Origin: Ignavibacteriota bacterium
Lineage (GTDB): Bacteria > Bacteroidota > Ignavibacteria > UBA10030 > SZUA-254
Assembly (NCBI GenBank): GCA_963727845.1
Contig: CAVSHI010000003.1
Span: 937,913-1,001,912, forward strand
Direction of reading: 5' to 3'
DNA length: 64,000 nucleotides
A program made the translations under genes and the position numbers. Position 1 is the stretch's first letter. Every line of letters starts with the position of its first letter. The notes beneath the pieces are model-generated. The model saw only the letters and a list, made by a program, of their open reading frames with translations. It made no database searches and was not told the DNA's origin. This document shows, in pieces, positions 3,962-41,208 of the stretch.

Positions 3962-6900
3962 TCATCCGGAAACGGAACTCTGGTGCGCGATTTCCATCAC
4001 TTTTCTTTTCGTATCTTCCAGCCGCTCCTTTGTGCCGTCCGGCAGGATATGCATGAATTGCAGCGTTAATTCCTTCCCAACCTGTTTGAGGTACACGTCT
4101 TTCATTTCTCCGCTGCTCACCTTTTCCATCATCCGCTGGAATGGCGCCGCTTTGTAACCATCGCCCGCCATATCACTGCCGGTGGGTGATCCGTAAAACC
4201 GTTCGTCGGATGCGTCGGGCAACGTAATGGACATTCGTTTACCTTTGAGCGAGACTTTTTGAAAGCCGGCGCGGGATGCCGCCATCCGCAGCTCGACGAG
4301 AAGAAACAAATGTTCCACCTCTTCGGGGTACTCACCAAAACGGTCATGCAATTCTCCCCGCATGGCAGTGAGTTCCTCATCGCTCACCGCCCTGTACAAA
4401 CGGCGGTAGATATCGAGACGCTCGGAATTGGATTCGACGTAGAAATCGGGGATGAGTGCTTCAATATCCGATTCGATGACAGTTTCCACAGATTTCGATG
4501 CGCGAGTCGGAAATTTCGAAGCGTCCTTTTGAAAAACCTCGGTGAATTCCTCCTGCTTTAATTCCTCCACTGCCTCACGGACGACGCGTTCGTACATTTC
4601 AAAACCCATTTCCATGATAAAGCCCGATTGCTCGGCGCCGAGTAGATTGCCGGCACCCCGAATCTCCAGGTCACGCATCGCCAGATTGAAACCCGAAACC
4701 GAGCTCGGTAAATTCTTCAATGGCCTGCAAGCGGCGCAGTGTCGGCCTGGGCAGAATGCCCAGCGGCGGGGTCAACAGGTATGCATACGCCTGGACGTTT
4801 GAGCGACCGACACGCCCGCGCAGCTGGTACAACTCCGCAAGCCCGAACCGGTCCGCACGATTGACGATAATGGTGTTCACGCTCGGAATATCGATACCCG
4901 ACTCAATGATCTTGGTGCACACGAGAACGTCCCGCTTTTTCTCAAGGAAATCGAACATTACCCTCTCGAGCTCGTGTCCGTGCATCTGACCGTGGGCGAC
5001 ATCAACCCGGGCTTCCGGGACGTGCGATTGCACCTGCTGGGCGATCGCATCGATGTTGTTCACCCGGTCGTGCACAAAATACACCTGTCCGCCGCGGTGC
5101 AATTCCTTGAGAATCGCCTCACGGATAAATTGCCAGTGTCCGCGCTTATCCGTAAAATCTGCGGGCACTATTTCCGTGACAATCGGCAGACGATTTCTCG
5201 GCGGCGTTGAAATGAGCGAGAGGTCACGTGCCCCGGCCAGCGAGAAGTGCAGCGTGCGCGGAATCGGCGTTGCCGTCAATGTGAGTGTATCGACGACCGC
5301 CTTTACCTTGCGCAATTTCTCCTTCGCCGCCACGCCGAAACGGTGTTCTTCATCGATGATCAGCAAACCCAGGTCTTTCAACGCGACATCCTTCGAGAGC
5401 AGGCGGTGCGTGCCGATAATGATATCGATACCTCCGGTTTCGAGCAGCTGCACAATCTTCTTTTGCTCTTTTGTCGATTTGAATCGCATAATGCTCTCGA
5501 TTCTCACGGTGTATCGTGCCAGCCGATCCTGGAAGGTATTGTAATGCTGCATTGCGAGAATCGTTGTCGGTACAAGCACTGCCACCTGTTTTCCGTCCAT
5601 CACGGCTTTGAAGGCGGCGCGAACGGCAACCTCGGTTTTACCGAATCCAACGTCGCCGCAGATGAGACGGTCCATGGGCGATGCACTTTCCATGTCGCGC
5701 TTCACGTCCAGAGTCGCTTGCGCCTGGTCGGGAGTGTCTTCATACATGAACGACGCTTCGAGCTCCTTTTGCCAGTGCGTGTCGGGAGAGAAGGCAAAAC
5801 CCCGTTCATGTTTGCGGCGGGCGTAGAGGGCAATCAGGTCCCGCGCAATGTCTTTGATGCGCCGTTTCGCACGGGCTTTCATCCGCTCCCACTCGTCACC
5901 CCCGAGCTTGCTGAGTTTCGGGATGTGACTTTCCTGTGACGAGTATTTCTGGACCCGGTTAACAAAATTCAAATTGACGTACAGGACATCGTTTTCAAGA
6001 AACAGCAGTTTTATAACTTCCTGGTCGATCCCCCCGACCTTTAGTTTCGCCAGGCCTGCAAAGGTCCCGATGCCGTGGTCGACATGGACAACACAATCGC
6101 CGGGTCGGAGCTGCTGCAGTTCTTTCTGCGTGAATCCTTTGAAACGCCGGCGCTTGCCGGATCCACGACGCCTCAGCCGTCCGAATATTTCGTGCTCGGT
6201 GAAGACCGCAAGCCTGGCCGGAGGGAAAATGAATCCGGCATGAATCGTTTCAGAAATAATATCGAAGGTAACCGCTGATGGTGCGGCTTTCCCTCCGTCC
6301 AGGCGAGGGACCGGGAATTCATTTTCATCCTGTCGAACGTCTGCAATCCGCGTTCCGAGCCCCGATACCGCATAAGGATCTTCAGGAGAGGTCAGAACTT
6401 CCTCCACCAGCTCTTTGAGCCGCGCGCCCTCTTCCTTCGTGTCGCTTGCGAGATGAATAATATATCCATCCAGGGAAAGTTTCTTCAGCGTGTCGACCAG
6501 CATGTTGATGCTTCCATTAAAGGCCGGCTGAAGAACCGACGCAAAATCTATAAGAGATGTCGATTGTTGATTCTCGACGGTCGACGGTTGATGATGAAAC
6601 GGTGAATTGATGATCCGGCGAAAAGCCCCGGACCGTCCATCGATAAACTTCCAGTCAAAAAGGTTTTGGATGCCTTCCTGGAAAAGTTCACCAATCTCCG
6701 CCTCGATGAGCGCAGGGCCGTCGAGAATGATAATCGCATCGGGAGACAGGTAGTCGAACAACGACGCCGAAAGTTCTCCCACCTCATCTGCCGCACCGGT
6801 CACCTGCGGTCTATCCGTGTCGTCAACCGAATCGTCGGTCAGCGCTGGAACGATGCTCGCCGTGGGCAGCTCCCGGATCGACCGCTGCGAAATCACATCA

Positions 6901-9186: not shown

Positions 9187-9244
9187 ACTACAGAATTCTC
9201 GGCGCTTCACGCCTCCCAACCGCTTCAATTCACGCTGCCCATTC

Positions 9245-9261
9245 GCGATTCAGCGAATCGC
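9245..9261. repeat. REP palindrome copy 2 (GCGATTCAGCGAATCGC + GTTACAG tail)
   Basis: Identical palindrome; the tail contains the RAYT stop codon (CTGTAA on the minus strand). Confidence 0.8.
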
Positions 9262-9262
9262 G

Positions 9263-9928
9263 TTACAGGGGAACGTTGCAGTAACTCCATTTCCATTTTG
9301 TCCACTCTTGGACCATTCCAGCTTTAACCGGATTGTTGAGAACGTATTCGATAATCCGTCCGAGATCCCCGTCGTTGCGAACGACATGGTCATAACTTTC
9401 GTGCTGCCAAAAGATGCCGGAACGATACAGTATTTTGTTGGCTTCGTGCGCCGTGAACTTCTTCAAGGATCCAATGATGTCGGTGACAATGTAGCGCGAG
9501 ACGCCGTCTCGCGCAGGTAGCGATTCAGCGAATCGCTCTACGCTGAAAACCATGTGGACATGATTGGGCATAATACAATATGCAAGAAGTTCGTACGCCA
9601 TCTGATCTCTATATTTGATGGCAGCGGACACAAGTCCGGCGATGCGGTCATCACGCAGCCAGAATTGACCTTCAGCCGACGTATCCAAGAACCGATCAAA
9701 ATTTTCGAAATACTGTTTACGCGCTTCCTCGCGCGCCAGATTCCTTTCACTATCGTCGCGCATGTGAGCGATTTGCCTTTCCAGACCCAGGTGTTCTTTC
9801 TTCAGTTGCAATACGACATAATCAGGAAGTGATCCTGCGAGCCGGAATGTCACAAAGAATGTTCCCCGTAATGGCTGGTAGTGGGGTAATCGACAACGGT
9901 AATATATTAATTCGTCTCCCATGGTCAA
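9263..9928 (-). mobile_element. REP-associated tyrosine transposase (RAYT, IS200/IS605 TnpA-like Y1 HuH transposase)
   Basis: HuH motif (MPNHVHMVF) and C-terminal catalytic-Tyr region (IFWQHESYDHVVRNDGD…YVLNNPVKAGMV) matching the RAYT signature W-Q-x-x-(F/Y)-(W/Y)-D-H-x-I-R…NP-x-K-A-G. Flanked by REP copies. Confidence 0.8.
9519..9537. repeat. REP palindrome copy 3 (AGCGATTCAGCGAATCGCT), located inside the RAYT coding sequence
   Basis: Encodes …SVERFAESLP… in the RAYT frame. Preceded by a second 10-bp palindrome GCGCGAGACG-c-CGTCTCGCGC at 9495-9515. Confidence 0.75.
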
Positions 9929-9965: not shown

Positions 9966-9999
9966 TACGATGTTCTCCCTCAGTCCATTTTGCTTATTC

Positions 10000-10016
10000 G
10001 CGATTCGGCGAATCGC
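10000..10016. repeat. REP palindrome copy 5 (GCGATTCGGCGAATCGC + GCTACAG tail)
   Basis: The tail overlaps the thyX stop codon (CTGTAG on the minus strand). Confidence 0.75.
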
Positions 10017-10017
10017 G

Positions 10018-11004
10018 CTACAGGCTGAGCTTGCTCAATTTCTCCAAAAACTCATCTGCCTCGCGCTCGCCAAGGCCTTTCAACTCAAGATATTCCTTTG
10101 TGATTGATGCAGCCTCGATATGTTCTTTCAAGACACACATTTCTAAACGCGAGAAATGTTCCGCCTTGAGGTTGTAGTCTTCGAATGCTTCCCACGCGAT
10201 CGGAGTAACCTTCCTTGTAATTTCCGCCATCGCTTCAGCATAAACGCGGATTTCGTACTGCGCGTGGGGATCCATCCGCAGGGCGAGAAAATGAAAAAGG
10301 TTGTGCAGATCGATTTTCCAGTACCACTCGGTATAGAGCGACAGCGGAAGGTGTACTCTCGCGAGCTCGCGGGCAATGTCGTTATCCAGCATCTGTTCGT
10401 ATTCCGCATACGTTTCGCGCTGGGCCGTGGTGAGTATTTCCAGCACTCTCTCTCGTAGCGCCGCCGGAACCTCGTCCACGGCGCGCCCCTGTCTGTTGCC
10501 TTTGCTCTGGTAGTGAATCGCGTCGTCTTCCGGGACGTAAAATTCGTCCTTCATCACTGAGTAGCGTCCCGAGTACTCATTCACGTTTGCCGTCCGGTGA
10601 CGGATCCACTGCCGCGCAACGAATATGGGAAGCTTCACGTGGAATTTAAGCTCCACCATCTCAAACGGTGTCGTGTGTTGATGACGCATGAGATAGCGGA
10701 TGAGTCCGCGGTCTTCATTAACTGATTTTGTTCCCTTCCCGTACGAGACGCGTGCCGCCTGCACGATCGATTCATCCCCACCCATATAATCGATGAGGCG
10801 TACGAAGCCGGCATTCAGGCACTTGAATTCCTTATCGAGCAGTTCGTTTGCCTGTGGATTTATGATATGGGCCATGCTTGTCAGTACCTGAAATAATTTT
10901 TCCGCGATTAACTGTTCAATGTACTGAATCGCAGAGAGAAAATCCATTTCAAAAATTTCTTCGGACCTTCGCGCCAAGCCTGCCACGGCAGCACATCGCT
11001 TCAA
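10018..11004 (-). CDS. thyX: flavin-dependent thymidylate synthase ThyX
   Basis: ThyX signature RHRxxxxxxxSxRY present (RHRTANVNEYSGRYS). 328-aa ORF; the true start may be an internal Met (e.g. MDFLSAIQ…). Confidence 0.85.
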   Translation of the reverse strand: MKRCAAVAGLARRSEEIFEMDFLSAIQYIEQLIAEKLFQVLTSMAHIINPQANELLDKEFKCLNAGFVRLIDYMGGDESIVQAARVSYGKGTKSVNEDRGLIRYLMRHQHTTPFEMVELKFHVKLPIFVARQWIRHRTANVNEYSGRYSVMKDEFYVPEDDAIHYQSKGNRQGRAVDEVPAALRERVLEILTTAQRETYAEYEQMLDNDIARELARVHLPLSLYTEWYWKIDLHNLFHFLALRMDPHAQYEIRVYAEAMAEITRKVTPIAWEAFEDYNLKAEHFSRLEMCVLKEHIEAASITKEYLELKGLGEREADEFLEKLSKLSL

Positions 11005-14619: not shown

Positions 14620-15117
14620 ATGCCAGACACAAGTTCTTTTGACATCGTTTCGAAGGTCGATTTGCAGGAAGTCGACAACGCAATCAACCAGGCACGAAAG
14701 GAAATCGCGCAGCGGTACGACTTCAAAGGCTCAAAGACTTCCATCGAGCTGATACAGAAGGAGCATGAAGTCGTCATCCTGTCTGACGATGATTTTCGCA
14801 TGAAGGCGACCGTCGACCTTCTTCAATCGAAGTTCGTGAAACGCGGCGTTCCGCTGAAGGCGTTCACCTATGGTAAGATCGAACCGGCCGCCGGCAGCCT
14901 CGTCCGGCAGACAATCAAACTGCAGAACGGCATTGACAAGGAAAACGCCAGGCTGATCGTCAAGATGATCAAAGACACGAAGCTGCGGGTGCAGGCACAG
15001 ATCATGGACGACCAGGTGCGCGTCAGCGGCAAGAACAAGGACGACCTTCAGGCCGTGATTGCGATGCTGCGCAAAGCAGACCTCAATTTCTCGATGCAAT
15101 ATATTAACTACCGTTAA
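14620..15117 (+). CDS. yajQ: YajQ-family nucleotide-binding protein (UPF0234)
   Basis: 165-aa [41 protein letters not shown]… typical of YajQ. Confidence 0.85.
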
Positions 15118-15124
15118 GCTGAGA

Positions 15125-15820
15125 ATGAGGATTCGACTCCTTCTCGCCGTTCAACTTTTCATCGCTTCAACGGCTTTCTGTCAATATTCCATCCCCGTCC
15201 AGTTCCCGAACCAGCCTTCGCGCAACGCGCAGGTTGCAACATTCCTTCGGGGGAAAACGCTCTACGGCGCTCTGAACGACCTTCTTTCATGCCTTCACAT
15301 CCAGAGTGCTTCTCGCTCCGGGACCAGGCAAGTGCAATTCAAGACAAATAACTGCACGGTGATGGTGACCGCAACCAGTCCGTACGTCGCGATCACCGAC
15401 AGGGATTCCAATATCAGCTCCATACAACTGCCGCAGGACGTTCTGTTCGGAGCAAGCCAGATTTTTGTTCCACTTGAATCGTTCGTTCCCGTTCTCGGTA
15501 CCGTCACCGGAAGGAACATCATATTCAAGTCTGGCGAAAAACGGATCGTGGTGGAAGATGCTGCGGCAGCGTCACCGTACGACATTACCGGACTGAGCGT
15601 GGAGGAAAAGAGCAATGGCGCTCTTGTGCGTATCCGATGCACGAAGACCCTCAAAGACTATGAAAGCTGGGTGAAACCGGAAGCTCGTGAAACGTGGCTC
15701 TACGTAACGATTGCCAACGCAAAAGCGGATACAACCGCCATTACAGCCACGAGGCCATCCGGCATCATGAAACAAATCATCGTGTTTCAATCGCCGACGT
15801 TCCGTCCAGTTCACCGTTAA
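15125..15820 (+). CDS. N-acetylmuramoyl-L-alanine amidase, N-terminal targeting domain portion (frame 2) of a probably single frameshifted amiC-like gene
   Basis: Signal peptide MRIRLLLAVQLFIASTAFCQ at ATG 15125. The ORF ends at 15820 while the catalytic-domain frame is already open from 15771. Confidence 0.6.
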   Translation: MRIRLLLAVQLFIASTAFCQYSIPVQFPNQPSRNAQVATFLRGKTLYGALNDLLSCLHIQSASRSGTRQVQFKTNNCTVMVTATSPYVAITDRDSNISSIQLPQDVLFGASQIFVPLESFVPVLGTVTGRNIIFKSGEKRIVVEDAAAASPYDITGLSVEEKSNGALVRIRCTKTLKDYESWVKPEARETWLYVTIANAKADTTAITATRPSGIMKQIIVFQSPTFRPVHR

Positions 15821-16688
15821 GCTGAAGGGAAAGTTCACGAGCACCGAGCCGTCATCGGCAGAAGGCTCAAACGACATCCTCATCGCGCTCCCGACACCAC
15901 CCCCAGAAAAGAACGACGATGTCGAGCGGTCGTTGGACCGAGAACGGAGCAAGTGGAAACTCGATTGCATCGTCATTGATGCGGGGCACGGCGGCGACGA
16001 CCCGGGAACTATCGGCGTCGCGCGAACAAAAGAGAAAGACATAACGCTCGCCATCGCGCTTAAACTCGGCAAGTTGATTGAGAAGAGCCTTCCGCAGACG
16101 AGAGTCGTCTACACGCGAAAAACCGATGAATTTATTGAATTATACCGCCGCGGCCAGATCGCAAACGAAGCCCAGGGAAAACTCTTTATCAGCATCCACT
16201 GCAACTCCGCCCCCCGGAAACCGGCTCCGGCACATGGGTTCGAAATCTATCTCCTGCGTCCAGGAAAAACAGAGAACGCTGTTCGCATTGCGGAACGGGA
16301 AAACGATGTCGTCAAACTTGAGAAAAATTACGAGCAGCGTTATCAGGAATTGAATGAAGAGCGTTTCATTCTCGTCACCATGGCACAGAGCGCCTACGTC
16401 AAGTACAGCGAACAATTTGCCGGAATCGTTCAGCAGGAAATGGGAAAGTATCTCAAGCAGGAGAATAACGGCGTGAAGCAAGCCGGGTTCTACGTGCTCG
16501 TTGGCGCATCAATGCCGAATGTGCTCATCGAGACCGGATATCTCTCCAACCGGAAAGAGGAACAGGTACTAAAGAGCGCGAAGGGGCAACAGCACATCGC
16601 CGAAGCGATCTTCAACGCGGTGAAGCGGTACAAGCAGGGATACGAGAAATCTCTGGAGGAGGGTAAGGACATTGGGACGCCGGATTGA
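15771..16688 (+). CDS. N-acetylmuramoyl-L-alanine amidase catalytic domain (Amidase_3) portion; first in-frame start is TTG 15933
   Basis: Amidase_3 hallmarks (CIVIDAGHGGDDPGTIG, …FISIHCNSA…, …VLIETGYLSN…). Protein-like Pro/Glu linker (VQFTVKLKGKFTSTEPSS…LPTPPPEKNDD) in the same frame upstream of the first start codon. Confidence 0.7.
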   Translation, partial: NKSSCFNRRRSVQFTVKLKGKFTSTEPSSAEGSNDILIALPTPPPEKNDDVERSLDRERSKWKLDCIVIDAGHGGDDPGTIGVARTKEKDITLAIALKLGKLIEKSLPQTRVVYTRKTDEFIELYRRGQIANEAQGKLFISIHCNSAPRKPAPAHGFEIYLLRPGKTENAVRIAERENDVVKLEKNYEQRYQELNEERFILVTMAQSAYVKYSEQFAGIVQQEMGKYLKQENNGVKQAGFYVLVGASMPNVLIETGYLSNRKEEQVLKSAKGQQHIAEAIFNAVKRYKQGYEKSLEEGKDIGTPD

Positions 16689-16903
16689 TTAACCTTTCTT
16701 GATGCTGCCACAACGAAAACTGCCTATCCTGCACAAGCCTAGCGGTAACCCCCCAATAATATAATGATGGGAACGTTGTGGTGCAGCATGTTGCCTACTG
16801 TCTGCACCGAAACAAGCCAACCAGTCTGAAAACAGGTTCTTCAGAAAATGCGGCCAGCGTGAGTGATGTTCCTTCACGCCTGAGATTCCTCTTAGCGAAG
16901 ACC

Positions 16904-17062
16904 TCATATATGTACAGCAATCTTCAGGACAACATTTCGCGGTTCTTCCCAGCTTGCTCCAGTAGTGTTTGCACCTTTGATGAGATGTGTGTGATCTAAT
17001 AAATTGGTAACATATTTGGACGGTTCGAAAGTGCTCCCTCCCTCAACCTCAAGAAATGTTTT
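16904..17062 (-). pseudogene. orphan 3'-terminal fragment of a TonB-dependent receptor paralogue
   Basis: Translation …GGSTFEPSKYVTNLLDHTHLIKGANTTGASWEEPRNVVLKIAVHI* is ~85% identical to the C-terminus of the TBDR at 17813..20302; the DNA is ~87% identical over ~190 bp (16873-17062 vs 17787-17975). Confidence 0.7.
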
Positions 17063-17708
17063 TTCCCCCTTTTTCCAGACATTCAGCGCCTTCCCGGTAA
17101 GAAAAATAAGCAATCACAACTGAGCCGACAGCATCAACATATCCAATGTTCGTAATCTGATATATCAGGCTCGCAATCAATAGTGTCAGGGACATTTGGA
17201 TGCAGACTTTTGTACAGTTGCCGTCTGCAATGATCGGTCGAGAATTCAGATCCCTCCCAACACGAAGTTTCGCCACCATCAAACCCATCATCATGAGTAT
17301 TGATAGAAGAGAGATGATGAGGCCTGGAACGGTTGTCTCTGGCTTATGATTGGTCACCGCTGCCACGATTGCACTGAACGCCAATGTCAAAGACAGAACA
17401 TAGAATGAAACACCAGTGACCTTCAAGGCGAATTGTTCAAAGTCATCTCTCACCACGTTATTGTTGTTTCGAATTCTCGTTATCAGGTGAGCAATTCCAA
17501 CTGCAGAGGCTGTTTCAATAAGGCTATCAATGCCGAAACCGAACAGCGTCAGGGTTTGGTCGGCATATCCAAAATAGAGCGAAAATATGGCTTCAAGCAA
17601 ACATGAAATGATCGTCAAAATACTCAAGCCGAAAGCAATCTTGTAGAGCTGTCTTTTCTCCATAGTACGGTGTCCTCTAATAATAACTCGCCCTCTGTTC
17701 GTTGCCAA
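17049..17708 (-). CDS. cation-diffusion-facilitator-like membrane protein (TMD only, degenerate metal-site motifs), AT-rich
   Basis: ~6 TM helices. CDF-like FGxxxDSLxE (FGFGIDSLIETASAV) and xIADGNCT in place of the DxxxH/HxxxD sites. GC visibly lower than surroundings. Probable start at MEKRQLYK (17663). Confidence 0.45.
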   Translation of the reverse strand: MATNRGRVIIRGHRTMEKRQLYKIAFGLSILTIISCLLEAIFSLYFGYADQTLTLFGFGIDSLIETASAVGIAHLITRIRNNNNVVRDDFEQFALKVTGVSFYVLSLTLAFSAIVAAVTNHKPETTVPGLIISLLSILMMMGLMVAKLRVGRDLNSRPIIADGNCTKVCIQMSLTLLIASLIYQITNIGYVDAVGSVVIAYFSYREGAECLEKGGKNIS

Positions 17709-17812
17709 ATGTCTGTATGATGGCTGAAAGCAGGTAAAGGTTGTACGGAATCACCTTCGCACCAGGAATCCGAGCTGCTCCCTCAAGCGTGAGATTCCTC
17801 TTCGCGAAGATT

Positions 17813-20302
17813 TCATATATGCAAGGCAATCTTCAAGACAACATTCCGCGGTTCTTCCCAGCTCGCTCCTGTGGTGTAAGCACCTTTGATTAGATGTATG
17901 TGATCCAATAGATTGGTAACATATATGGACGGTTCGAAAGAACTTCCTCCCTCGAGATGGAAGGTATGCCCTGCGCTAAAATTGAATATCCAATATGGAG
18001 TTGTATGTGCTGCCTGATTGAAATCGAACAATCCTGTTTTGTAGATGGAAACGTCCTCCGGGTGGCCGTTAGAAAGTCCGGATCCATACGTCACCTCGGG
18101 ATTGATATACCAATCTTGGGGCTGGTAGTTGATGGCAGCCACAATCGAAAGCCTTTGATCATGATCAAGGTCGGTTGCCGATCCGTCAGTGCTCGGGGGC
18201 AAGAAGCCCCCTGTCAGAGGACCCGAACCAACAGCATGAATGATTGAAGAGTTCAGGTGGCCCGAGAATGGGGTTGTCGGATCGCTATAGGAGAGTGAAC
18301 ACTCGATCCCGGTTGTCTTTACAGTGGCAATATTGAACGGGGTTTTGATTGCAGTATTACCGATTTGTGCATCATCCGTAAATGGACTGGCATACTTGAA
18401 GAAGGCCGCCGTTTTGAACCGGAGATTAACTGGAAAACTGTGGGTGTAGACGGCCTCATAGTAGGAGTCGCGCTCTGGAAATGTTGCTGTGACTGAGTTG
18501 CTTACACGTTGAGCTATCGATCTAAGTGCTTCAATATTTGTAGGCATGAAGAGCCTGCCGTAATACAGGTACGCTGAACTGTATTCATCTATGAGGAAAT
18601 TCCACCGGATTCTGGGGCTGACCTGTCGCTGGAGCGGAACCACTGGAGCGATATGTTGATCATAGCGGGTACCCAGATCGAACGAGGTCCAGTCGAGAGG
18701 ATGCCATTTAGTCTCCACGAAAATCCCACAATCTGAACCAGTGAAGTTGCTGAGGATTGATGGACCGGGGTTTTGCAAAGAATCACGAGATGTGAAATTC
18801 TCGGCCCCGCTGGTGCTACTAAGGTTGAATCCAACCTTATACATGAACTGGTGAGAAAGCCTCTCGTCGAACGTCGAGCGGATACCGAGCGTGGTAAAAC
18901 TTCTGTCCTCGAAGAGATTATAGTTTGTCGAATCTCCGGCAAATTGGAAGTTCGGTGGATCAATATCGCCAGGAGTATAGATCAAGTTACCTTCGCGCGT
19001 ATACGCTCCCATGAACAGGTTTTCCTCTTGACCGGGTTGTGAATTCATTTCACGGAAATAAGAAATTGCTTGCAATGAATTAGTTGTTGCCTGCACATCG
19101 GAAGTAATTTGCACCGTGGGATCGTAAGGAACTTGTGTGGAGGTTCTTCCAAAACTCAGATTTGCCGTTATGTAATCGATATCGCTAAGGATATAATCGA
19201 ACTTGCCGTAGAGAAAATAATCGAACCCATGGTCGTGAAACAGATTTGGCACGGGGGTGTCTATGCGACGATCTGTTTCCTGACGCGAGGCGGATGCATA
19301 ATATCCCAATTTGCCAAGGTGATCACTAATCGACAAAGCCTCGCCGTCTGAATTAAGTGCTCTGAAAGGGCCGACGCGACCGCCGAGTGTGTCACCTGGG
19401 ATAGCCGATGACGGGCCGGATGCGACTTCGGTTCCAGCCGAAAGGGGTTTGGTTCCATTGAACACAAGATAACTCCCCACATATGTCGAAGCATCGAGAT
19501 GAAATGTTCCTGTCGGGACACGGTTATTCAGGTCGATGATGGCAGACATCTGGCCACCGTACTCAGCGGGGAATCCTCCCGTGATGAAAGTTGCACGGTC
19601 TATGACTTTCGGATCGACAACTTCATTTAATCCCCCAAATACGCCCAGCGGAACCGGAATACCATCGATATAATACGTGAATTCTCCGTGTTGTCCCCGG
19701 ATATGGACTTCACTTGTAGGCGCCCGTGCTGCCCCCGTGAGGTTTTGCTGAATCAAGTTTGTCATTTGAGCCGTCGGCGGTGGGTGATAGGTTTCTGATT
19801 CAAAGGTTTGATTGCCAGTACTGACATTGATATTCGAAACGCCAGGTTCACGATGGCCGACCACTTCAACGCCCTGAAGTTGACTATCCTTTGGCCGGAG
19901 GTTAATTGTGCAGGTTGTGTGATCCTGATTTATCAGAACGGAATCCGTGTAAATCTCATAGCCGACGAACCAGGCGGTCAGCGTGTAAAAGCCTGGTTGT
20001 ATATTGCGAATCCAAACTTGTCCTGCCGTATTGGTTGCATCCTCAGCAACGACTTTTTTCCCATGCTGCAATACCACTCGTGCAAGGCCGATGGGGACTT
20101 TTTCATTAGCATCATAAACTGATATCCTGAAATCTATGCCCTCTTTGCCTTGTGGAGTGGAAATTGTCCGCTCTGCATGTGCGAAAGAGGTAATCCACAT
20201 AAACAGACATAATAGCATCATAGAGGAAATTCTTTGATGTACCATCTCTATAATTTGTCGCATAAATGCCATAGATCGTGTTCGCCTTTTTTCGAACATC
20301 AT
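17813..20302 (-). CDS. TonB-dependent outer-membrane receptor (CarboxypepD_reg-like N-domain + plug + beta-barrel)
   Basis: 829 aa. Signal peptide, then carboxypeptidase-regulatory-like segment (FRISVYDANEKVPIGLARVVL…GFYTLTAWFVGYEIY), plug-like region and long barrel. Start overlaps the stop of the upstream gene (ATGA at 20299-20302). Confidence 0.75.
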   Translation of the reverse strand: MMFEKRRTRSMAFMRQIIEMVHQRISSMMLLCLFMWITSFAHAERTISTPQGKEGIDFRISVYDANEKVPIGLARVVLQHGKKVVAEDATNTAGQVWIRNIQPGFYTLTAWFVGYEIYTDSVLINQDHTTCTINLRPKDSQLQGVEVVGHREPGVSNINVSTGNQTFESETYHPPPTAQMTNLIQQNLTGAARAPTSEVHIRGQHGEFTYYIDGIPVPLGVFGGLNEVVDPKVIDRATFITGGFPAEYGGQMSAIIDLNNRVPTGTFHLDASTYVGSYLVFNGTKPLSAGTEVASGPSSAIPGDTLGGRVGPFRALNSDGEALSISDHLGKLGYYASASRQETDRRIDTPVPNLFHDHGFDYFLYGKFDYILSDIDYITANLSFGRTSTQVPYDPTVQITSDVQATTNSLQAISYFREMNSQPGQEENLFMGAYTREGNLIYTPGDIDPPNFQFAGDSTNYNLFEDRSFTTLGIRSTFDERLSHQFMYKVGFNLSSTSGAENFTSRDSLQNPGPSILSNFTGSDCGIFVETKWHPLDWTSFDLGTRYDQHIAPVVPLQRQVSPRIRWNFLIDEYSSAYLYYGRLFMPTNIEALRSIAQRVSNSVTATFPERDSYYEAVYTHSFPVNLRFKTAAFFKYASPFTDDAQIGNTAIKTPFNIATVKTTGIECSLSYSDPTTPFSGHLNSSIIHAVGSGPLTGGFLPPSTDGSATDLDHDQRLSIVAAINYQPQDWYINPEVTYGSGLSNGHPEDVSIYKTGLFDFNQAAHTTPYWIFNFSAGHTFHLEGGSSFEPSIYVTNLLDHIHLIKGAYTTGASWEEPRNVVLKIALHI

Positions 20303-20817
20303 TGGAAGCCAAACAGTATGCCCGCAGATGCTCCCAAAGACTGCGAGGATCTCTCGCCAAACGTGGAGCTATAACCTGGCTCTATATACCAGCCCACGTT
20401 CGTTTTTGGCCAGCACATGAAGTCGAGAACGATTTCCATATCATAGGAGGTTGTACGATCGTTCCCACCAAATTTGTGAACCACTTCAGGCCCAAGGCCG
20501 AACATAAACTCCGCAGTGTGAGATAGTCGATATGGTTTCTTGAACAGAAGGTCAATTCCAACTTCGGTGTGATCCGAAGTTTGGAGTGCGGTTACGCCGC
20601 TTTCCAACTCGAGCCAATTTTCTATCGGTGTTACCTCGACCGCAAACGTGCCGCCGAATTGAAATGAAGATTCATTAAGATCCCATTCTCCTGCCGGTCC
20701 AATCTCGAGAACCAGACCATGATCCTTGTCGACATCCTCTTGAGCGAGGACAGAGCACGCGGAGCATTGAAGAACGCCAACGACGAGAATCATCCACAAT
20801 CTTACTTTACATCGCAT
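20299..20817 (-). CDS. small secreted hypothetical protein, first gene of the TBDR operon
   Basis: 172 aa with a signal peptide (MILVVGVLQCSACSVLAQ). Preceded by the DtxR/MntR-type operator and promoter. Confidence 0.6.
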   Translation of the reverse strand: MRCKVRLWMILVVGVLQCSACSVLAQEDVDKDHGLVLEIGPAGEWDLNESSFQFGGTFAVEVTPIENWLELESGVTALQTSDHTEVGIDLLFKKPYRLSHTAEFMFGLGPEVVHKFGGNDRTTSYDMEIVLDFMCWPKTNVGWYIEPGYSSTFGERSSQSLGASAGILFGFQ

Positions 20818-20844
20818 AGGTCTATTACAACGTTTTCATCATAT

Positions 20845-20887
20845 TTTAGGTATACCTAAATATAAGTTTTGGTGCACTGAAATGCAA
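20845..20887 (-). promoter_or_regulatory. sigma70-like promoter (-35 TTGCAT at 20882-20887, 17-nt spacer, -10 TATATT at 20859-20864) overlapped by perfect 16-bp palindrome TTTAGGTATACCTAAA (20845-20860)
   Basis: Palindrome resembles DtxR/MntR-family operators. The whole ~45-nt module is near-identical to the one upstream of mntR at 23738-23780. Confidence 0.6.
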
Positions 20888-21181
20888 GTCGGCTCGGACA
20901 TGGCCGCGCACACCGGGTGATCATTCGTCAATTGAACGAGGGGAAGAATTAATAGATCGGCAAGCTACGCCGGGAGATCAAATATTCACAAAGAATCGAC
21001 CCAAGAAGGGGAGCAGTCCAATTTTCATGATTCCTAAAATAACAATTGGATCAGTTTTACATCTAGGCACAGATAAAGACTCTGATCGCGATGATCTGAG
21101 AACAGAGTGGTGCCCAAATCAAGACCCGCGCCGGAGCAAACGCGAGATCCGGGTCTCCATGTCAACCAATGTGGAAGTCTT

Positions 21182-21598
21182 CTACTTCGCTTTGAGAAGA
21201 AGCACGGGCACGCTTATGTGGTGCCGGACTTTTGTGACCGTTGTCCCGAGAAACAGGTCGGCTACCAAACGGTGGCCGTGTGTGCTCATCGCTAGGAGAT
21301 CGCATCCCTCTTTCTGAATCCATTTGACAATTTCCTGGGCCGGTTCGCCGTAAGCCAATTCTGCTTCCGCCGGAATATTCTCTGAGCGGAATTCTGATTT
21401 CACTTTTTCCAAGTACGCCTTGTCCTCAACTACCTCCGGGCTGACGGCGTCGCGACCGAATATGCGAGCCGCCCAGCCATCGGCGACATGCAACAACACC
21501 ACCCGGCTTTGCATGAATCGGGCGAGTTGTTTGACGTGTTCGATGATCGCCCTGTCGGTGGGAGTGCCGTCCAGGGTTACAAGAATCGTTTTATACAT
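21182..21598 (-). CDS. universal stress protein (UspA family)
   Basis: 138-aa Usp fold (MYKTILVTLDGTP…VLLHV…GCDLLAMSTHGH…VPVLLL); last gene of the mntR-mntH-usp cluster. Confidence 0.75.
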   Translation of the reverse strand: MYKTILVTLDGTPTDRAIIEHVKQLARFMQSRVVLLHVADGWAARIFGRDAVSPEVVEDKAYLEKVKSEFRSENIPAEAELAYGEPAQEIVKWIQKEGCDLLAMSTHGHRLVADLFLGTTVTKVRHHISVPVLLLKAK

Positions 21599-21626
21599 GC
21601 CTGTTTCCTGTTTGCTGAGAAAAACC

Positions 21627-23045
21627 TCATCCGCCGATGATGACCCGCCACGCTTCCTTCAGTGACTCTGGAAGACTGTAGAGATCCATGACAGTTATGA
21701 GCAGGGCGCTTCCCCATCCCAATATAATCAGAAACCAGCCACTTGTCCACTTTCCCATTATCTTACGGGATGAAGCGAAATACAACAGGGGAAACATCGC
21801 AAAAGGCAATATGAGGCAGAGAATGACCTGACTGAGATTGACCAAATCCGTCACGCTGCCGCCTCCGCGGACACTGATGATCAGAATTGCCGGAACCACC
21901 GCAAGCGTCCGCGAGATCATCCTTCGCAGCCACGGACGGATACGCCAATTCATGAAGCCTTCCATCACGACCTGTCCGGCCAGCGTGCCGGTAATCGTGC
22001 TGCTTTGTCCACTGGCAAGCAATGCCACAGCAAAGAGCGTGCTCGCGAAGGTAGTACCGAGCAGCGGGGCCAATGTCAGGTGAGCTATACGGATCCAATC
22101 GCTGTCGGGGCTGAACATCACCACCTGCCCCCCCGCCACCGTTACACTATTCTTGCCGTAAAAAACCATCGCCGCCAGCACGAGGATCGCGGCGTTGACC
22201 ACGAACGCAACGGCCAGCGCGACGGAGGAATCAATGGTATTGAACCGAATCGCGTTACGAATCGAACGGTCATCGCGCTGGAACTTCCGCGTCTGAACAA
22301 GAGCAGAGTGAAGGAACAGGTTATGAGGCATGACGGTGGCGCCGATCATCCCGATAGCTATTACGAGCATGCCTGTTTGCCGAAAGCTGGGTTGAAGCAG
22401 CGCCTGACCCATCTCCAGAAAACTTGGTTGTGTCTGCGGGAGGATGAATATCTCGATGGCATAGCAGACGCCGATCGTAGCCACGAACACCGTGACAACG
22501 GCTTCAATCATCCGCATGCCAAATCCTTGCAAAGCAAGCAAGAGCAGAACATCGGCTGCGGTGATAACGATCGCCCAGGCAATGGGAATATGAAACAAGA
22601 GATTCAAAGCAACCGCACTGCCCAGCGCTTCGGCCAGATCCGTCGCACCAATGGCGATTTCCATAGAGATCCAGTTGGGCCAGCGGCTCCATTTCGGAAG
22701 ATAATCGCGGCAACACTGGGCAAGATCCTTCCCGGTGGCTACGCCCAAACGGGCTGAGATCACCTGAAGGATGACTGCCATGAAGCTTGCCAGTGCGATA
22801 ACCCACAGCAGGGCATATTTGAACTGTGCTCCCCCGGTGAGATCCGTTCCCCAATTGCCGGGATCCATGTAACCAACACTCACCAGCACTGCCGGCCCCA
22901 CAAACGCACGCCAGTTTTGCCAGAAACCGGCCTCGTTGTTCGGCACCGCCACCGTGTTGTGCATCCCCTCCAATGAAGGATGAGCGCGTGATTCCGGATT
23001 CTCAGGCGTCATGTTCTCTTCCGGCGACAATGGTTTTTTAAACAA
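21627..23045 (-). CDS. mntH: NRAMP-family divalent metal (Mn2+/Fe2+) transporter MntH
   Basis: NRAMP signature (GYMDPGNWGTDLTGGAQFKY) and ~11 TM helices. Overlaps the mntR stop by 8 nt. Confidence 0.85.
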   Translation of the reverse strand: MFKKPLSPEENMTPENPESRAHPSLEGMHNTVAVPNNEAGFWQNWRAFVGPAVLVSVGYMDPGNWGTDLTGGAQFKYALLWVIALASFMAVILQVISARLGVATGKDLAQCCRDYLPKWSRWPNWISMEIAIGATDLAEALGSAVALNLLFHIPIAWAIVITAADVLLLLALQGFGMRMIEAVVTVFVATIGVCYAIEIFILPQTQPSFLEMGQALLQPSFRQTGMLVIAIGMIGATVMPHNLFLHSALVQTRKFQRDDRSIRNAIRFNTIDSSVALAVAFVVNAAILVLAAMVFYGKNSVTVAGGQVVMFSPDSDWIRIAHLTLAPLLGTTFASTLFAVALLASGQSSTITGTLAGQVVMEGFMNWRIRPWLRRMISRTLAVVPAILIISVRGGGSVTDLVNLSQVILCLILPFAMFPLLYFASSRKIMGKWTSGWFLIILGWGSALLITVMDLYSLPESLKEAWRVIIGG

Positions 23046-23718
23046 CCTCTATAAAAATACTCTTTGCAAGCAGGGGGCTCAGCGGGATTTCTTTTCTCCC
23101 CACAATGACGATGACGGAGCCGTCAAACTTTATTTTCTGCTTGACCCGGACTTTCTTGTTCAGACCCAGGCCGAGCTTCGTGAGAAGCTGCAGGGCTTCC
23201 TGGCTTTCATCGCTGACGCGCACGATGATGCCGACGTCGTGAGCATCGCACTGGGAGAGCCGCCGATACGTGATTTTCTTGAGCACTCCATCGGCTGTCG
23301 GGATAGGATCTCCGTGGGGATCGACCTTGGGGTGGCCGAGTGCTTTATCGAGCCTGATCTCCATTTCATCAGACGTCACATGTTCGAGAAGCTCGGCCTC
23401 GTCATGAATTTCGTCCCACGTGTAGCAGAGAAATTTAACAAGAAACATTTCCCACAGGCGGTGCCGCCGCACCATTTTGAGCGCCACACGCCGTCCGGCT
23501 TCCGTGAGCGTTACACCCTGGTATGGCTCGTAATTGATAAGCTGTTTTTCCGAGAGTTTCTTGACCATGTCGGTGACGGAGCCGTCGCCGATCTTCAGGT
23601 GCTTTGCCAGGACTGATGTCGGGACGACCTGTTCGCCCGCCTTCGAAGTGTGTTCTGCAGCAAGGCGAATCTGTAGATGGTAAATGCTTTTGAGGTAATC
23701 TTCCGTTGATTGGTTCAT
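23038..23718 (-). CDS. mntR: DtxR/MntR-family metal-dependent transcriptional repressor with C-terminal FeoA/SH3-like domain
   Basis: N-terminal wHTH (MNQSTEDYLKSIYHLQ…SVLAKHLKIGDGSVTDMVKKL), metal-binding/dimerisation region (…HRLWEMFL…DEIHDEAELLEH…) and C-terminal FeoA-like domain. Confidence 0.8.
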   Translation of the reverse strand: MNQSTEDYLKSIYHLQIRLAAEHTSKAGEQVVPTSVLAKHLKIGDGSVTDMVKKLSEKQLINYEPYQGVTLTEAGRRVALKMVRRHRLWEMFLVKFLCYTWDEIHDEAELLEHVTSDEMEIRLDKALGHPKVDPHGDPIPTADGVLKKITYRRLSQCDAHDVGIIVRVSDESQEALQLLTKLGLGLNKKVRVKQKIKFDGSVIVIVGRKEIPLSPLLAKSIFIEVV

Positions 23719-23737
23719 TTTAGCGCATGTAATCTAT

Positions 23738-23780
23738 TTTAGGCATGCCTAAATATAGGTTTTGGTGTACGAAAATGCAA
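23738..23780 (-). promoter_or_regulatory. mntR promoter (-10 TATATT 23752-23757, -35 TTGCAT 23775-23780) overlapped by perfect 16-bp palindrome TTTAGGCATGCCTAAA (23738-23753)
   Basis: Same architecture and spacing as the module at 20845-20887; probable autoregulatory operator. Confidence 0.6.
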
Positions 23781-23847
23781 GTTGGCAGGGGACTGGGCCC
23801 TTACTGATGGGGGACTGGAGAAGGTTTTGCAACGTCCGGTGCTATGG

Positions 23848-23925
23848 CTTTCGAAACCCTCACCCTGTCACTCAGTGACATCCCTCTCCCATTTATGGGA
23901 GAGGGAGCGAGGGTGAGGGTTACAA
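23848..23925. repeat. nested triple-palindrome element (outer CCCTCACCCT/AGGGTGAGGG, inner GTCACTcAGTGAC, and CCCTCTCCCA-ttta-TGGGAGAGGG)
   Basis: Read directly: aaaCCCTCACCCTGTCACTCAGTGACATCCCTCTCCCATTTATGGGAGAGGGAGCGAGGGTGAGGGttac, in the intergenic region between marC and mntR. Confidence 0.6.
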
Positions 23926-24061
23926 TGACATTTGAGAAATCTCGAGATGTCTGGCAGTACGCATTGGATTACTTGGGGTTATTGTTTCAGGCGGCAGAGG
24001 CATCCAGGTGAGAATGAAGTTTTCCATCGATCAGTGAAACGTCGACCTAGCCCGCCTGCTC

Positions 24062-24739
24062 CTAACCCTGCCAGAAGCTCCGCTCCAGCACCAAATCCCG
24101 CACGCCATTGATCATGAATTGAATTCCAATACAGACGAGAAGGAACCCCATTATACGCGATAGACTATTGACGCCATTTACGCCCAGATAGCGGCGCAAG
24201 GCCGTCGCCCCGCGAAGGACCAACCACGAGATAATCGCGGTGATTATGATTGCCAAGACTACTCCGACAAAGCCTAGTATTTTATCCATCCCCCTCCATC
24301 CCGCGATAGATGATGACATCGTAATGACAACAGCGATGGATCCTGGTCCGCTCAAGCTCGGCATCGCGAGAGGGCTGAATGAAATATCTTGTTTCTTCCC
24401 CGCCTCCTCTTTACCCTCCTCAGTCAGCGGACCGCCGTCCGGAAACAACATGCGGAACCCGAGATATCCAATGACCATTCCACCTGCTATACGTATGCCC
24501 GGTACGGAGATACCGAATCCGACAATGATAAAGTGACCGGCGAAAAGGAACGCGAGCAGGATTGCCGTCATGTACATGCACGCCCGCGTGACCTGTCGAT
24601 TGCGTTCCTTCTCATCGATATGCGCGCTTATACTGAGAAGAAGGACGGCCGTGCCCACGGGGTTGATAATGGGGAGAAGGGTTACAAGCGTCACGCCGAT
24701 CCAGGAAAGAAATCCGCCAAAGCTATTCATCGCGCACAT
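24062..24739 (-). CDS. marC: MarC-family integral membrane protein (UPF0056)
   Basis: 225 aa with 6 TM helices and conserved MarC-type segments (LLPIINPVG…, GPGSIAVVI…). Start possibly at MNSFGG (24730). Confidence 0.7.
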   Translation of the reverse strand: MCAMNSFGGFLSWIGVTLVTLLPIINPVGTAVLLLSISAHIDEKERNRQVTRACMYMTAILLAFLFAGHFIIVGFGISVPGIRIAGGMVIGYLGFRMLFPDGGPLTEEGKEEAGKKQDISFSPLAMPSLSGPGSIAVVITMSSSIAGWRGMDKILGFVGVVLAIIITAIISWLVLRGATALRRYLGVNGVNSLSRIMGFLLVCIGIQFMINGVRDLVLERSFWQG

Positions 24740-34777: not shown

Positions 34778-35541
34778 ATCAGTTGCAGTTTTTGGAGTGC
34801 TTTTTCTGCGGCCGCCTGCTCGGCATCTTTTTTGTTTTTCCCCATGCCCACCCCGTGCGGGTCGTTGCCGACGTACACTTCGACGGTGAACGTCCGGTCG
34901 TGGTCCGGACCTTCTTCATTGATGGTCGCATACCGCGGGATGCTCAAACCTTCGGCCTGGGCGTACTCGAGCAATTGACTTTTGAAATTTTCGTCATCTG
35001 TCGTGACCGTCCCGTCGCGCAGGGCAGAATTAATTTGTCGATCGATAAATTCCCTGGCGGCTTCGTTCCCGCCATCCAGATAGATCGCAGCGACAAGAGC
35101 TTCAAACGCATCCGCAAGAATCTTACTCATGCCTCTGCCATCTGTCCGGGTGGCGCTGACGCCGATCAACATAAAATCTTCAAGGTGAACCTGGTGAGCA
35201 TAGATGCTGAGGGATTTGCGATTAACGAGACGGGAGCGGCCTTTTGTAAGGTCGCCTTCCGGAGAGGATTCGTGCTGTTCGAAGAGGCGCTTCGCCACAA
35301 TAAGATTCAGTACTGCGTCGCCCAGGAATTCCATCCGTTCATTGGAACCGAGGGCGCCATTGCCATTCTCCTGGAAGTACGAGCGGTGGGAGAGCGCTTG
35401 CAAAAACAGCTGTCGATCGCGGATGCTATAGTTGATAGCCCTTGAGAGTTTCCCCAAATCGACCGTGCGAAGGAGGTCGTGCTCTGAAGGTACGCTCCGC
35501 CATCGGCTGAACCATTTAGCGAGCCGACCGATCACCTTCAT
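34774..35541 (-). CDS. rnc: ribonuclease III
   Basis: RNase III signature ERMEFLGDAVLNL plus C-terminal dsRBD (…KNKKDAEQAAAEKALQKL). Confidence 0.85.
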   Translation of the reverse strand: MKVIGRLAKWFSRWRSVPSEHDLLRTVDLGKLSRAINYSIRDRQLFLQALSHRSYFQENGNGALGSNERMEFLGDAVLNLIVAKRLFEQHESSPEGDLTKGRSRLVNRKSLSIYAHQVHLEDFMLIGVSATRTDGRGMSKILADAFEALVAAIYLDGGNEAAREFIDRQINSALRDGTVTTDDENFKSQLLEYAQAEGLSIPRYATINEEGPDHDRTFTVEVYVGNDPHGVGMGKNKKDAEQAAAEKALQKLQLI

Positions 35542-35553
35542 TGTGCCACACGA

Positions 35554-36810: not shown

Positions 36811-36843
36811 TGCGTTCCTCCTAGTACCCGGATTGTAGAAATG

Positions 36844-37080
36844 TCACTTGGCTTTACCCGTAAGATACGACACTGCGTCTCCTACGGTGGAGATCTTCTC
36901 GGCGTCTTCGTCGGGAATCTGGAGGTTGAACGCTTTTTCAAATTCCATCACGAGCTCAACGGTATCGAGAGAATCGGCCCCGAGGTCATTTGTAAACGAT
37001 GCCTCTTTCGTCACTTGAGAAGCCTCCACACCGAGCTTGTTCATGATGATTTCTTTGACTTTTGCTTCTATGTCTGCCAT
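36844..37080 (-). CDS. acpP: acyl carrier protein
   Basis: [17 protein letters not shown] phosphopantetheine-attachment motif. Start taken at MADIEAKV (ATG 37080) rather than the longer track ORF. Confidence 0.9.
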
Positions 37081-37143
37081 GGCAGTTGCTCCTTTTATTA
37101 GTGAATTGATGATAGTTGTTTTCTCTTTCAACTCTCCGATGAC

Positions 37144-37890: not shown

Positions 37891-37895
37891 GATTG

Positions 37896-38816: not shown

Positions 38817-38841
38817 TGTTAGAAAAATGACAAAGGCGTTT

Positions 38842-40886: not shown

Positions 40887-41005
40887 GTAACCGATAGTGT
40901 TCCGTTAACTGATAGACAATGGCCGATATTCGTATGCCACAAAAATCCCAGAGCTTTCGGACGCGTTCTCAACGTAACGTTGAGTGGCATCAATCGCAGA
41001 GGAAG

Positions 41006-41188
41006 TTATGATTCTTTGGGAATGATGATGGAACGCCCGTGATAGTATCCGCAGTTCGGGCAAGCGCGATGAAGGAGTTTTTGCTCGTGGCAATTTGGAC
41101 ACTCGGCAACGGAAGGAACGCTCGCCTTGTAATGCGTTCGCCGTTTTGCTCCACGCGATTTCGAGTGTCGTCGTTTGGGATTTGGCAT
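41006..41188 (-). CDS. rpmF: 50S ribosomal protein L32
   Basis: 60-aa basic protein with CPNCHEQ…CPNCGYY zinc-ribbon, MPNPKRRHSKSR start. Confidence 0.9.
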   Translation of the reverse strand: MPNPKRRHSKSRGAKRRTHYKASVPSVAECPNCHEQKLLHRACPNCGYYHGRSIIIPKES

Positions 41189-41208
41189 GTTTATGCTTTC
41201 TTTAACAT

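Follow-up and report, generated by a model that had tools for sequence, protein, structure and literature searches.

Why should the 3' end of a single gene for a TonB-dependent receptor (TBDR) occur twice, on either side of a gene for a small CDF-like membrane protein? The question is raised by a 64,000-nt stretch of DNA from an Ignavibacteriota bacterium (assembly GCA_963727845.1, contig CAVSHI010000003.1, positions 937,913 to 1,001,912), referred to here as the window, to which all coordinates given below relate. An earlier note on this DNA had described direct repeats of about 190 bp and about 87% identity flanking an AT-rich 660-nt CDF-like gene and had taken the arrangement for a rearrangement or insertion scar, left either by a foreign cassette that landed next to the TBDR gene with segmental duplication or by the loss of most of a tandem TBDR paralogue. 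On the minus strand, the gene order is h172, TBDR, a spacer, the CDF-like gene and finally the orphan TBDR 3' end, designated copy A; the corresponding part of the intact TBDR gene is designated copy B. The repeat itself, the junction next to it and the pattern of decay all support a rearrangement scar. Copy A is the scar of an illegitimate recombination event whose other breakpoint falls within the C-terminal tail of the CDF-like protein, a part that the protein can do without. The scar is of an ordinary kind, is situated at one edge of a small accessory block for metal homeostasis, and does not amount to a new system.

The repetition of the TBDR 3' end together with its downstream flank proved real. 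A repeat search returned a single direct-repeat family, 16867-17044 and 17776-17953, with a length of 178 nt, 86% identity and a start-to-start distance of 909 nt. The identity given before is therefore about right (86% overall, 87% for the coding part), whereas the length of about 190 nt is not. A blastn search of the whole window related copy A to copy B with an E value of 1.8e-56 and found no third copy. In a MAFFT alignment the two copies match without gaps, and both edges are bounded by unrelated sequence. An extension of the repeat beyond +40 nt past the stop was rejected, global and local alignments of the downstream regions giving z values of 1.4 and 1.0 against shuffled sequences. Copy B (17776-17953, minus strand) belongs to the intact TBDR gene as its native end, with the final 46 codons, the stop codon and 37 nt of downstream flank. 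Copy A (16867-17044, minus strand) contains 46 codons at 16907-17044, the stop at 16904-16906 and a 37-nt flank at 16867-16903. A start codon is absent, as are the 782 upstream codons of the TBDR gene, and the translation, EGGSTFEPSKYVTNLLDHTHLIKGANTTGASWEEPRNVVLKIAVHI*, agrees with that given before, so that the description as an orphan C-terminal fragment is borne out. The 69-aa mechanical open reading frame (ORF) lying over copy A extends back across the 3' end of the CDF-like gene and should not be annotated as a gene. For the sequence downstream of copy A there are no homologues beyond those named in this text. About 100 related loci (designated by L-numbers) were retrieved for comparison, the records of which give the lineage as Bacteroidota, Kryptoniota or Ignavibacteriota. 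In none of them is an intact second TBDR present at this place, so that the finding by which the earlier note would have had its reading refuted did not turn up. No TBDR fragment was found downstream of a CDF gene in L001-L008 or in 77 TBDR loci.

The way in which the two copies differ tells us where most of the difference arose. Over the 138 coding nucleotides they are 87% identical, while the next nearest sequences reach up to 84% (to copy A) and up to 85.5% (to copy B). The copies are thus mutually nearest, by a small margin, and copy A is about as close to the TBDR ends of other lineages as to copy B, as would be expected if A and B were alleles from two lineages. Of the 18 coding differences, 13 are synonymous and five non-synonymous (dS = 0.585, dN = 0.049, omega = 0.083). 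Had copy A evolved neutrally since the split, about 64% of the changes should be non-synonymous, and the observed five of 18 deviate from this with P ~0.002. Such a dominance of synonymous changes indicates that most of the divergence was gained inside working genes and that the decay of copy A takes up no more than a minor fraction of the divergence time. When the differences are polarised with 11 outgroups, the exchanges I->K, I->T and Y->N fall on copy A, and two of them, I->K and Y->N, hit positions that are invariant in the 11 outgroup genes and in 16 protein-cluster representatives. Without its own three changes, the protein encoded by copy A is equally close to P0122. Because it has no 5' part and carries radical changes at invariant residues, copy A is, judging from its sequence, a decaying, non-functional remnant whose sequence took shape while it was still part of a working TBDR gene. 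Outside the window, the 40-nt 3' flank was found only in L012 (75%) and, for 29 nt, in L004. The similarity of copy A to the TBDR 3' flank in L012, where no CDF gene follows, reaches to +48 nt as compared with +40 nt for copy B, which is a weak signal.

The gene between the two copies spans 17049-17663 on the minus strand (615 nt), with a probable ATG start at 17663 and a TGA stop at 17049-17051, and encodes the 204-aa product P0001. The 660-nt version with a TTG start is a mechanical ORF only, the 615-nt ATG gene being more likely, and the end of the gene should be annotated at 17049. The protein matches the Pfam family Cation_efflux (PF01545) with 35.6 bits (gathering score 26.6) over profile positions 2-190 of 198. 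It consists of the transmembrane domain alone, with the six helices of the family, and ends about 15 residues past the last helix; a second, cytoplasmic C-terminal domain is absent. It scores far under the cut-offs of the CDF models in NCBIfam (29 bits against TIGR01297, cut-off 82), its best specific similarity there, a weak one, is to the manganese exporter MntE, and a sequence match in the PDB was not obtained. The protein belongs, at full length, to a widespread family whose members have about 200-220 aa (350 matches). Metagenome contigs yielded no closer CDF relative (best match 67%). The closest genes (88-90%) reside in TBDR-CDF or DtxR-x-CDF-Nramp loci (L004, L167, L001), and omega between relatives is about 0.1. 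The pairing of a TBDR with a short CDF is limited to this clade and was seen in none of 33 loci of the wider short-CDF family with enough upstream sequence.

The same genome contains a second copy of the CDF-like gene elsewhere, recorded on a contig with the length of the window's own (1,291,877 nt). Its product P0242 (210 aa), taken from the 90%-identity cluster of the window protein, is identical to the latter over residues 1-197 and then ends in KKNVSCGCGSE* instead of GKNIS*; two of seven residues differ just ahead of the stop used in the window. The C-terminal sequence of P0242, EKGKKNVSCGCGSE*, retains the CxC tail. According to blastn, the gene for P0242 does not lie within the window. 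Zero changes in 197 codons followed by a divergent tail imply a boundary of a recombination tract near codon 197 and hence, as we read the sequences, a recent exchange between the two CDF loci by gene conversion or duplication. Since the tail in the window differs from that of P0242, this tail, the junction and copy A should be older than the exchange.

The junction zone proper (17034-17051, minus strand) reads ...TCT TGA GGT TGA GGG AGG GAG and, with more of its surroundings, ...AAC ATT TCT TGA GGT TGA GGG AGG GAG CAC TTT CGA ACC... TBDR homology begins at 17044, 5 nt past the CDF stop. An overlap of the CDF-like gene with the fragment, as described before, does not exist and is a property of the mechanical ORF only. 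From GAGGGAGGGAGCAC onward there is identity with the TBDR of L009 from codon 783, and the purine-rich GAGGGAGGGAG allows two readings, one as the tail of the CDF (C-G-S-E in P0242), the other as codons 783-786 of the TBDR. For comparison, the CDF gene of L005 ends with ...ATT TCT TGC GGC TGA and that of L004 with ...AAC ATT GAT TGT AGC TGC GAA AGC GAA TGA. The two in-frame TGA codons in the window thus occupy the places of Cys codons in relatives and P0242, or that of the stop of L005 itself. In the wider short-CDF family a Cys-x-Cys tail is typical. Stops have removed it independently in four lineages, namely in the window (17049-17075), L001, L005 and L167, and are placed at codon 200 (L167), 203 (L001), 205 (window) and 207 (L005). 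The tail is therefore evolutionarily labile, and a breakpoint within it would be tolerable.

In principle, the CDF-like gene could be a foreign cassette, as the earlier note had considered. It is indeed AT-richer than its surroundings (GC 0.437 as compared with 0.524 for the window) and belongs to the lowest 2% of all 615-nt windows. However, the orthologues in all relatives checked are equally GC-poor (0.43-0.45; 0.39 in L017, which is AT-richer) and always lie under their neighbours. TBDR (GC 0.478, GC3 0.48) and h172 (0.489, 0.50) are low, too; GC3 is 0.47-0.50 across the h172-TBDR-CDF stretch and 0.59-0.78 in the flanking genes. The adjacency of TBDR and CDF recurs in related loci: L004 has h172-TBDR-CDF and is collinear with the window from h172 to the CDF gene at 84-87%, TBDR 3' flank and CDF leader included, L005-L008 and L086 share the order DtxR-TBDR-CDF-Nramp-Usp, and TBDR-CDF is also present in L017/L018. 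What deviates in composition, and what is present or absent as a unit, is an accessory block of 4,463 nt at 16719-21181 (minus strand) between the convergent Usp and amidase genes, which contains a promoter/operator region (P2, see below), h172, TBDR, the CDF-like gene and copy A. Its GC of 0.472 (mean 0.524, sd 0.016) is the lowest among stretches of this size in the window. The unit includes the TBDR gene, and the CDF-like gene is therefore no lone foreign cassette. Given that orthologous genes in relatives show the same offset in GC, the composition of the block does not date its acquisition.

The closest-relative lineages, L170-L173 and L174-L177, were found through the 90%-identity clusters of the DtxR, Usp and saccharopine dehydrogenase (SDH) proteins of the window. 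In both, the entire 4.46-kb block is absent and both flanks are collinear at 86-90% nucleotide identity (amino acid identities: MFS 95-96%, rhamnosidase 91-92%, amidase 95-98%, YajQ 95-96%, SDH 90-93%). The slot between Usp and amidase is hypervariable: it measures 106 nt in L170 and 722 nt in L174, where it holds an unrelated 184-aa gene, and it is filled with genes for an ECF sigma factor, an anti-sigma factor and YfiO in L001/L005. Neither terminal repeats at the ends of the block nor an integrase, transposase, tRNA or mobility gene were found. For annotation, 16719-21181 should be treated as accessory.

How did copy A come to lie behind the CDF-like gene? The route we lean towards, while giving it not quite an even chance, is a displacement of the C-terminal end of a resident TBDR by a segment carrying a TBDR 3' end and a CDF gene. 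We infer the following order of steps. A segment made up of a TBDR 3' part, the 40-nt flank, the spacer and the CDF gene would have come in, its source being either a paralogous TBDR-CDF locus or another, related lineage. It would have undergone homologous recombination in the TBDR body of a resident h172-TBDR operon without CDF, while its far end would have been joined to the resident TBDR at about codon 783 by means of the purine-rich match between the CDF tail and GAGGGAGGGAG. The resident 3' end would thereby have been displaced downstream, lost its function and begun to decay. A donor of the L004 type would supply exactly copy B, the spacer and the CDF gene, and a donor-like TBDR-CDF locus is seen in L004, just as TBDR operons without CDF are seen in the L009 clade and in L012. 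The displacement would explain why all operons of the window type lack a CDF gene and why L004-type loci are collinear with the window. It would also explain the mosaic character of the locus in general and a divergence that is allele-like, dominated by synonymous changes and at least as large as between species.

Several observations weigh against this route. Among the related loci, we found neither the actual donor nor the actual recipient configuration, and no relative has a TBDR gene directly convergent on the amidase gene. In 200-nt sliding comparisons with L004, L009 and nine others, the nearest relative never switches, so that a mosaic breakpoint inside the TBDR gene was rejected. The 3' flank of copy A is of the L004/L012 type and not of the L009 type, which means that the resident TBDR would not simply have been L009-like. 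Recombination across 14% divergence is inefficient, and identical runs between A and B do not exceed 17 nt. The exact overlap at the junction amounts to 2 nt (GA) when the known DNA of relatives is considered, and the match of 8-9 out of 11 nt with the tail of P0242 (C-G-C-G-S-E*) is obtained only through back-translation of the protein. Moreover, the existence of a second CDF locus means that copy B may have been overwritten by gene conversion, which would weaken the dN/dS test; if this happened recently and from a paralogous locus, the test would be silent on the origin of copy A. Finally, all structure in the window is known from one metagenome-assembled contig.

The main rival to displacement is the decay of a tandem: an arrangement h172-TBDR(B)-CDF-TBDR(A) would have lost the intergenic region and 782 codons through RecA-independent deletion at short purine-rich repeats, placed in the CDF tail and at about codon 783 of TBDR(A). 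This version of the tandem paralogue suggested earlier needs only a single simple deletion and would explain both the low dN/dS, as both copies were once functional, and the common 40-nt flank. Relatives often carry this TBDR family in tandem arrays (L010, L014, L019, L020, L023, L040, L058, L073, L075), L014 even having the order TBDR-CDF-TBDR, and decaying members or stubs exist as well: the TBDR gene of L076 is broken into three ORFs, and L004 retains stubs of the Nramp 5' and Usp 3' ends. The tandem stays in contention, although we give it a lower chance than the displacement. No relative carries two TBDRs of the same class (83-86%) in tandem, the array partners found elsewhere being 55-65% identical to the query. 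A dS of 0.58 would require the long coexistence of near-redundant receptors in a block that is absent from the closest relatives. The ten nearest protein clusters inspected list no further TBDR with 78% identity or more for the 1,291,877-nt (1.29-Mb) contig, although an identical duplicate would escape detection. A neutral fragment existing since an in-place duplication is likewise at odds with the synonymous-dominated divergence. The same divergence counts against a further rival, namely that copy A was born as a fragment when a local event set the CDF gene after the TBDR gene and duplicated 178 nt, copy B or TBDR-CDF being overwritten later by gene conversion from the paralogous CDF locus. 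This corresponds to the inserted cassette of the earlier note in the strict sense and could have come about by template switching or by single-crossover integration of a circularised [TBDR-3'-spacer-CDF] molecule. A circular R-X molecule integrating by one crossover would produce precisely an R-X-R layout, linear DNA is documented to circularise and then integrate by a single crossover (PMC3240628), and the second CDF, identical over 197 aa and then sharply divergent, attests to a recent tract. However, at least two events are needed, and also a paralogous TBDR donor, which has not been seen; the CDF tail at the junction side, and with it the junction and copy A, predates the recent exchange; and copies identical at birth, with only A drifting, should show a non-synonymous majority, which is not observed. 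We regard birth as a fragment as improbable.

The two other explanations have far less to recommend them. A chimeric join of strain variants could in theory create a false partial duplicate, the contig being a single metagenome-assembled one and the frameshift near 15795-15810 in the amidase gene, which is intact in relatives, pointing to possible indel errors. Such an artefact is very unlikely here, as the copies are 14% divergent, 731 nt of unique, intact coding sequence lie between them, the substitutions are codon-aware, and mis-joins at overlaps collapse repeats rather than create diverged ones. Least credible of all is that copy A was kept for a function, as a 3'-UTR or terminator of the operon, a small RNA or a small protein. 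The conservation of about 30-40 nt of the TBDR 3' flank (TCTTCGCNAAGAGGAATCTC...) in copy A, copy B, L012 and L004 would fit, yet Rfam returned no match in 16000-24500, folding was no better than for shuffled sequences (z = -1.65, -0.20 and +0.26), a terminator-like site was found past neither copy, invariant residues are radically changed, and the fragment is absent from every relative examined. Two classes of mobile element were also rejected. A transposon or insertion sequence with target-site duplication does not fit a repeat of 178 nt with 14% divergence, as compared with 2-15 bp, nor the absence of inverted repeats flanking the CDF-like gene and of a transposase from the block, the sole Y1_Tnp gene being located outside it at 9263-9928. 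An integrative element using an att site is contradicted by the lack of an integrase between the repeats, where the CDF-like gene is the only gene, and by a repeat identity of only 86%.

The displaced-end reading can be compared with described systems. Homology at one end combined with an illegitimate join at the other is known as homology-facilitated illegitimate recombination (PMC3240628), and orphaned 3' ends in type VI secretion system (T6SS) and Rhs loci have been proposed to originate from it (PMC5361080, which cites Jackson et al. 2009 on rhs). The window likewise holds a co-oriented orphan 3' fragment downstream of an intact homologous gene with cargo in between. As in the orphan ends of Rhs, contact-dependent inhibition and T6SS loci, the gene body is followed by the current 3' end, the cargo and the older orphan 3' end in one orientation, and homology upstream would be combined with a non-homologous join downstream, after which the orphan decays. 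In contrast to those systems, the ends are near-identical in function here (89% at the amino acid level) and no alternative toxin tips; there is one orphan and no array, no immunity-type cargo and no sign of diversifying selection; and donor and recipient states were not observed. Remnants of RecA-independent deletion share with the locus the join in a short purine-rich match, the missing start and the stubs in L004 and L076, but a full-length second TBDR of the same class was seen in no relative. The block resembles genomic islets in intergenic hot spots between convergent core genes: the closest relatives lack it, no other stretch of its size in the window has a GC as low, and the slot contents vary by lineage. 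It differs from them in that an integrase, a transposase, a tRNA gene and terminal repeats are lacking at its ends. Orphan gene ends left by recombination are thus joined by one more case, and the scar itself matters little. As a whole, the locus presents a compact example of mosaic evolution in an uncultured lineage, in which an accessory island sits in a slot of varying content, alleles have been replaced with a breakpoint between regulator and Nramp, a promoter/operator has been copied, and the CDF gene is present twice in the genome.

Mosaicism extends to the neighbouring operon, regulator-Nramp-Usp (21182-23718), which is headed by a DtxR/MntR-family metal-dependent regulator gene at 23038-23718 (minus strand), the regulator being closest to MntR, and continues with Nramp (21627-23045) and Usp (21182-21598). 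With those of L170/L174 the regulator shares 90-94% identity and with those of L009/L166 49-50%, whereas Nramp and Usp are 88-91% identical to L009/L166, 92-96% to L170 and 71-77% to L174. In terms of sequence identity, the locus is a mosaic of alleles with a recombination breakpoint between regulator and Nramp. A terminator-like hairpin after Usp (21125-21146, minus strand) divides the two transcription units.

The regulator gene is preceded by a promoter/operator region, P1 (23735-23786, minus strand), with the palindrome TTTAGGCATGCCTAAA at 23738-23753. A 52-nt copy of P1 with 86.5% identity, P2, lies upstream of h172 (20842-20893, minus strand) and contains the palindrome TTTAGGTATACCTAAA at 20845-20860. 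The general motif, TTTAGG-N4-CCTAAA (TTTAGGnAnnCCTAAA), occurs in the 64 kb at these two places only, 0.03 matches being expected, and the same motif is present upstream of DtxR or TBDR genes in L001, L005, L013, L015, L022-L024 and L166. Apart from the sequences named, the P2 region has no homologues. In L009, L166 and L015, which share the gene order, the region preceding h172 is of another sequence and lacks the palindrome. P2 of the window therefore gives the impression of having been captured, as a copy, from the operator of the resident regulator itself, and the block appears to have been wired to the resident MntR/DtxR-like repressor through this copied promoter/operator. With a common palindrome in both promoter regions, the h172-TBDR-CDF and regulator-Nramp-Usp operons look co-regulated via the predicted operator, and palindromic operators upstream of the operons with a regulator nearby make up a putative DtxR/MntR regulon.

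The better lead offered by the locus is a functional one: a CDF-like protein without the cytoplasmic domain is predicted to be co-transcribed with a TBDR from behind the same putative operator as an Nramp importer operon. Like the CDF transporters MntE, FieF and YiiP, the protein has a Cation_efflux transmembrane domain above the gathering score and a weak similarity to MntE. It differs from them in its size of about 200 aa, the missing cytoplasmic C-terminal domain, scores under the NCBIfam cut-offs and the lack of a PDB match, as well as in its place in an operon with an outer-membrane receptor, behind a predicted repressor-type operator that is common to the Nramp importer operon. It is conceivable, though in our estimation a long shot, that h172, TBDR and short CDF constitute a mobile, MntR/DtxR-repressed module for manganese or iron acquisition, in which the domain-less CDF would aid the receptor in uptake and the orphan tail would record the capture of cargo by C-terminal displacement. 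If this were true, the domain-less CDF would be an inner-membrane importer or a counter-ion valve co-expressed with uptake and not a classical exporter.

The remaining parts of the operon can be described briefly. The TBDR-like gene (17813-20302, minus strand) is an ORF of 829 aa, the recorded product P0121 having 819 aa. It encodes an N-terminal CarboxypepD_reg domain and has a weak match to Plug, the 19 bits of which are under the cut-off of 23.9. The barrel model PF00593 does not match the window protein but is recorded for many homologues with 65-80% identity, and homologues carry the annotation as TonB-dependent receptors. The first gene of the operon, h172 (20299-20817, minus strand), encodes 172 aa without a Pfam match, and its stop overlaps the TBDR start. 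The 149-nt spacer between TBDR and CDF (17664-17812, minus strand) begins with about 40 nt of TBDR 3' flank, in common with copy A and L012 (L004 has the first 29 nt), and ends with about 37 nt of CDF 5' leader, in common with L001 (L004 has the last 26 nt); the middle portion of about 72 nt is specific for the window, with no homologues beyond those named for the spacer. The order DtxR-Nramp-Usp-h172-TBDR is found in L009, L166, L011 and L015, and the same order without h172 in L013, L021 and L046. In all seven, the operon ends at the TBDR gene without a CDF, and a convergent RND efflux cluster comes next.

Further traces of rearrangement were noted in the related loci and elsewhere in the window. 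At 5915-6064, L004 contains a deletion scar in which an 82-nt piece (CDF end and about the first 58 nt of Nramp) is fused to a 70-nt Usp 3' piece; this scar derives from an ancestral CDF-Nramp-Usp order. L012 13520-21004 is collinear with window positions 34837-41703. In L012 this block lies about 1 kb from the TBDR 3' end, while in the window the TBDR has the opposite orientation and a distance of about 14.5 kb, which would fit an inversion or another rearrangement with one end near the TBDR 3' flank. The gene for an N-acetylmuramoyl-L-alanine amidase at 15059-16688 is split into two ORFs by the frameshift near 15795-15810, L170 and L174 having one intact 520-aa gene, and is either a pseudogene or affected by an assembly indel error. 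The MarC-family gene at 24062-24739, between rhamnosidase and regulator, is absent from this position in L170 and L174 and represents another small indel. A 28-nt palindromic element (GTAGCGCGATTCGCTGAATCGCGAATGG-like) at 9239-9266 and 9994-10021 flanks the IS200-like Y1_Tnp gene, an arrangement that resembles repetitive extragenic palindromic (REP) elements with their transposase, and a copy of the same element occupies the Usp/amidase slot of L170 (L170 10429-10459).

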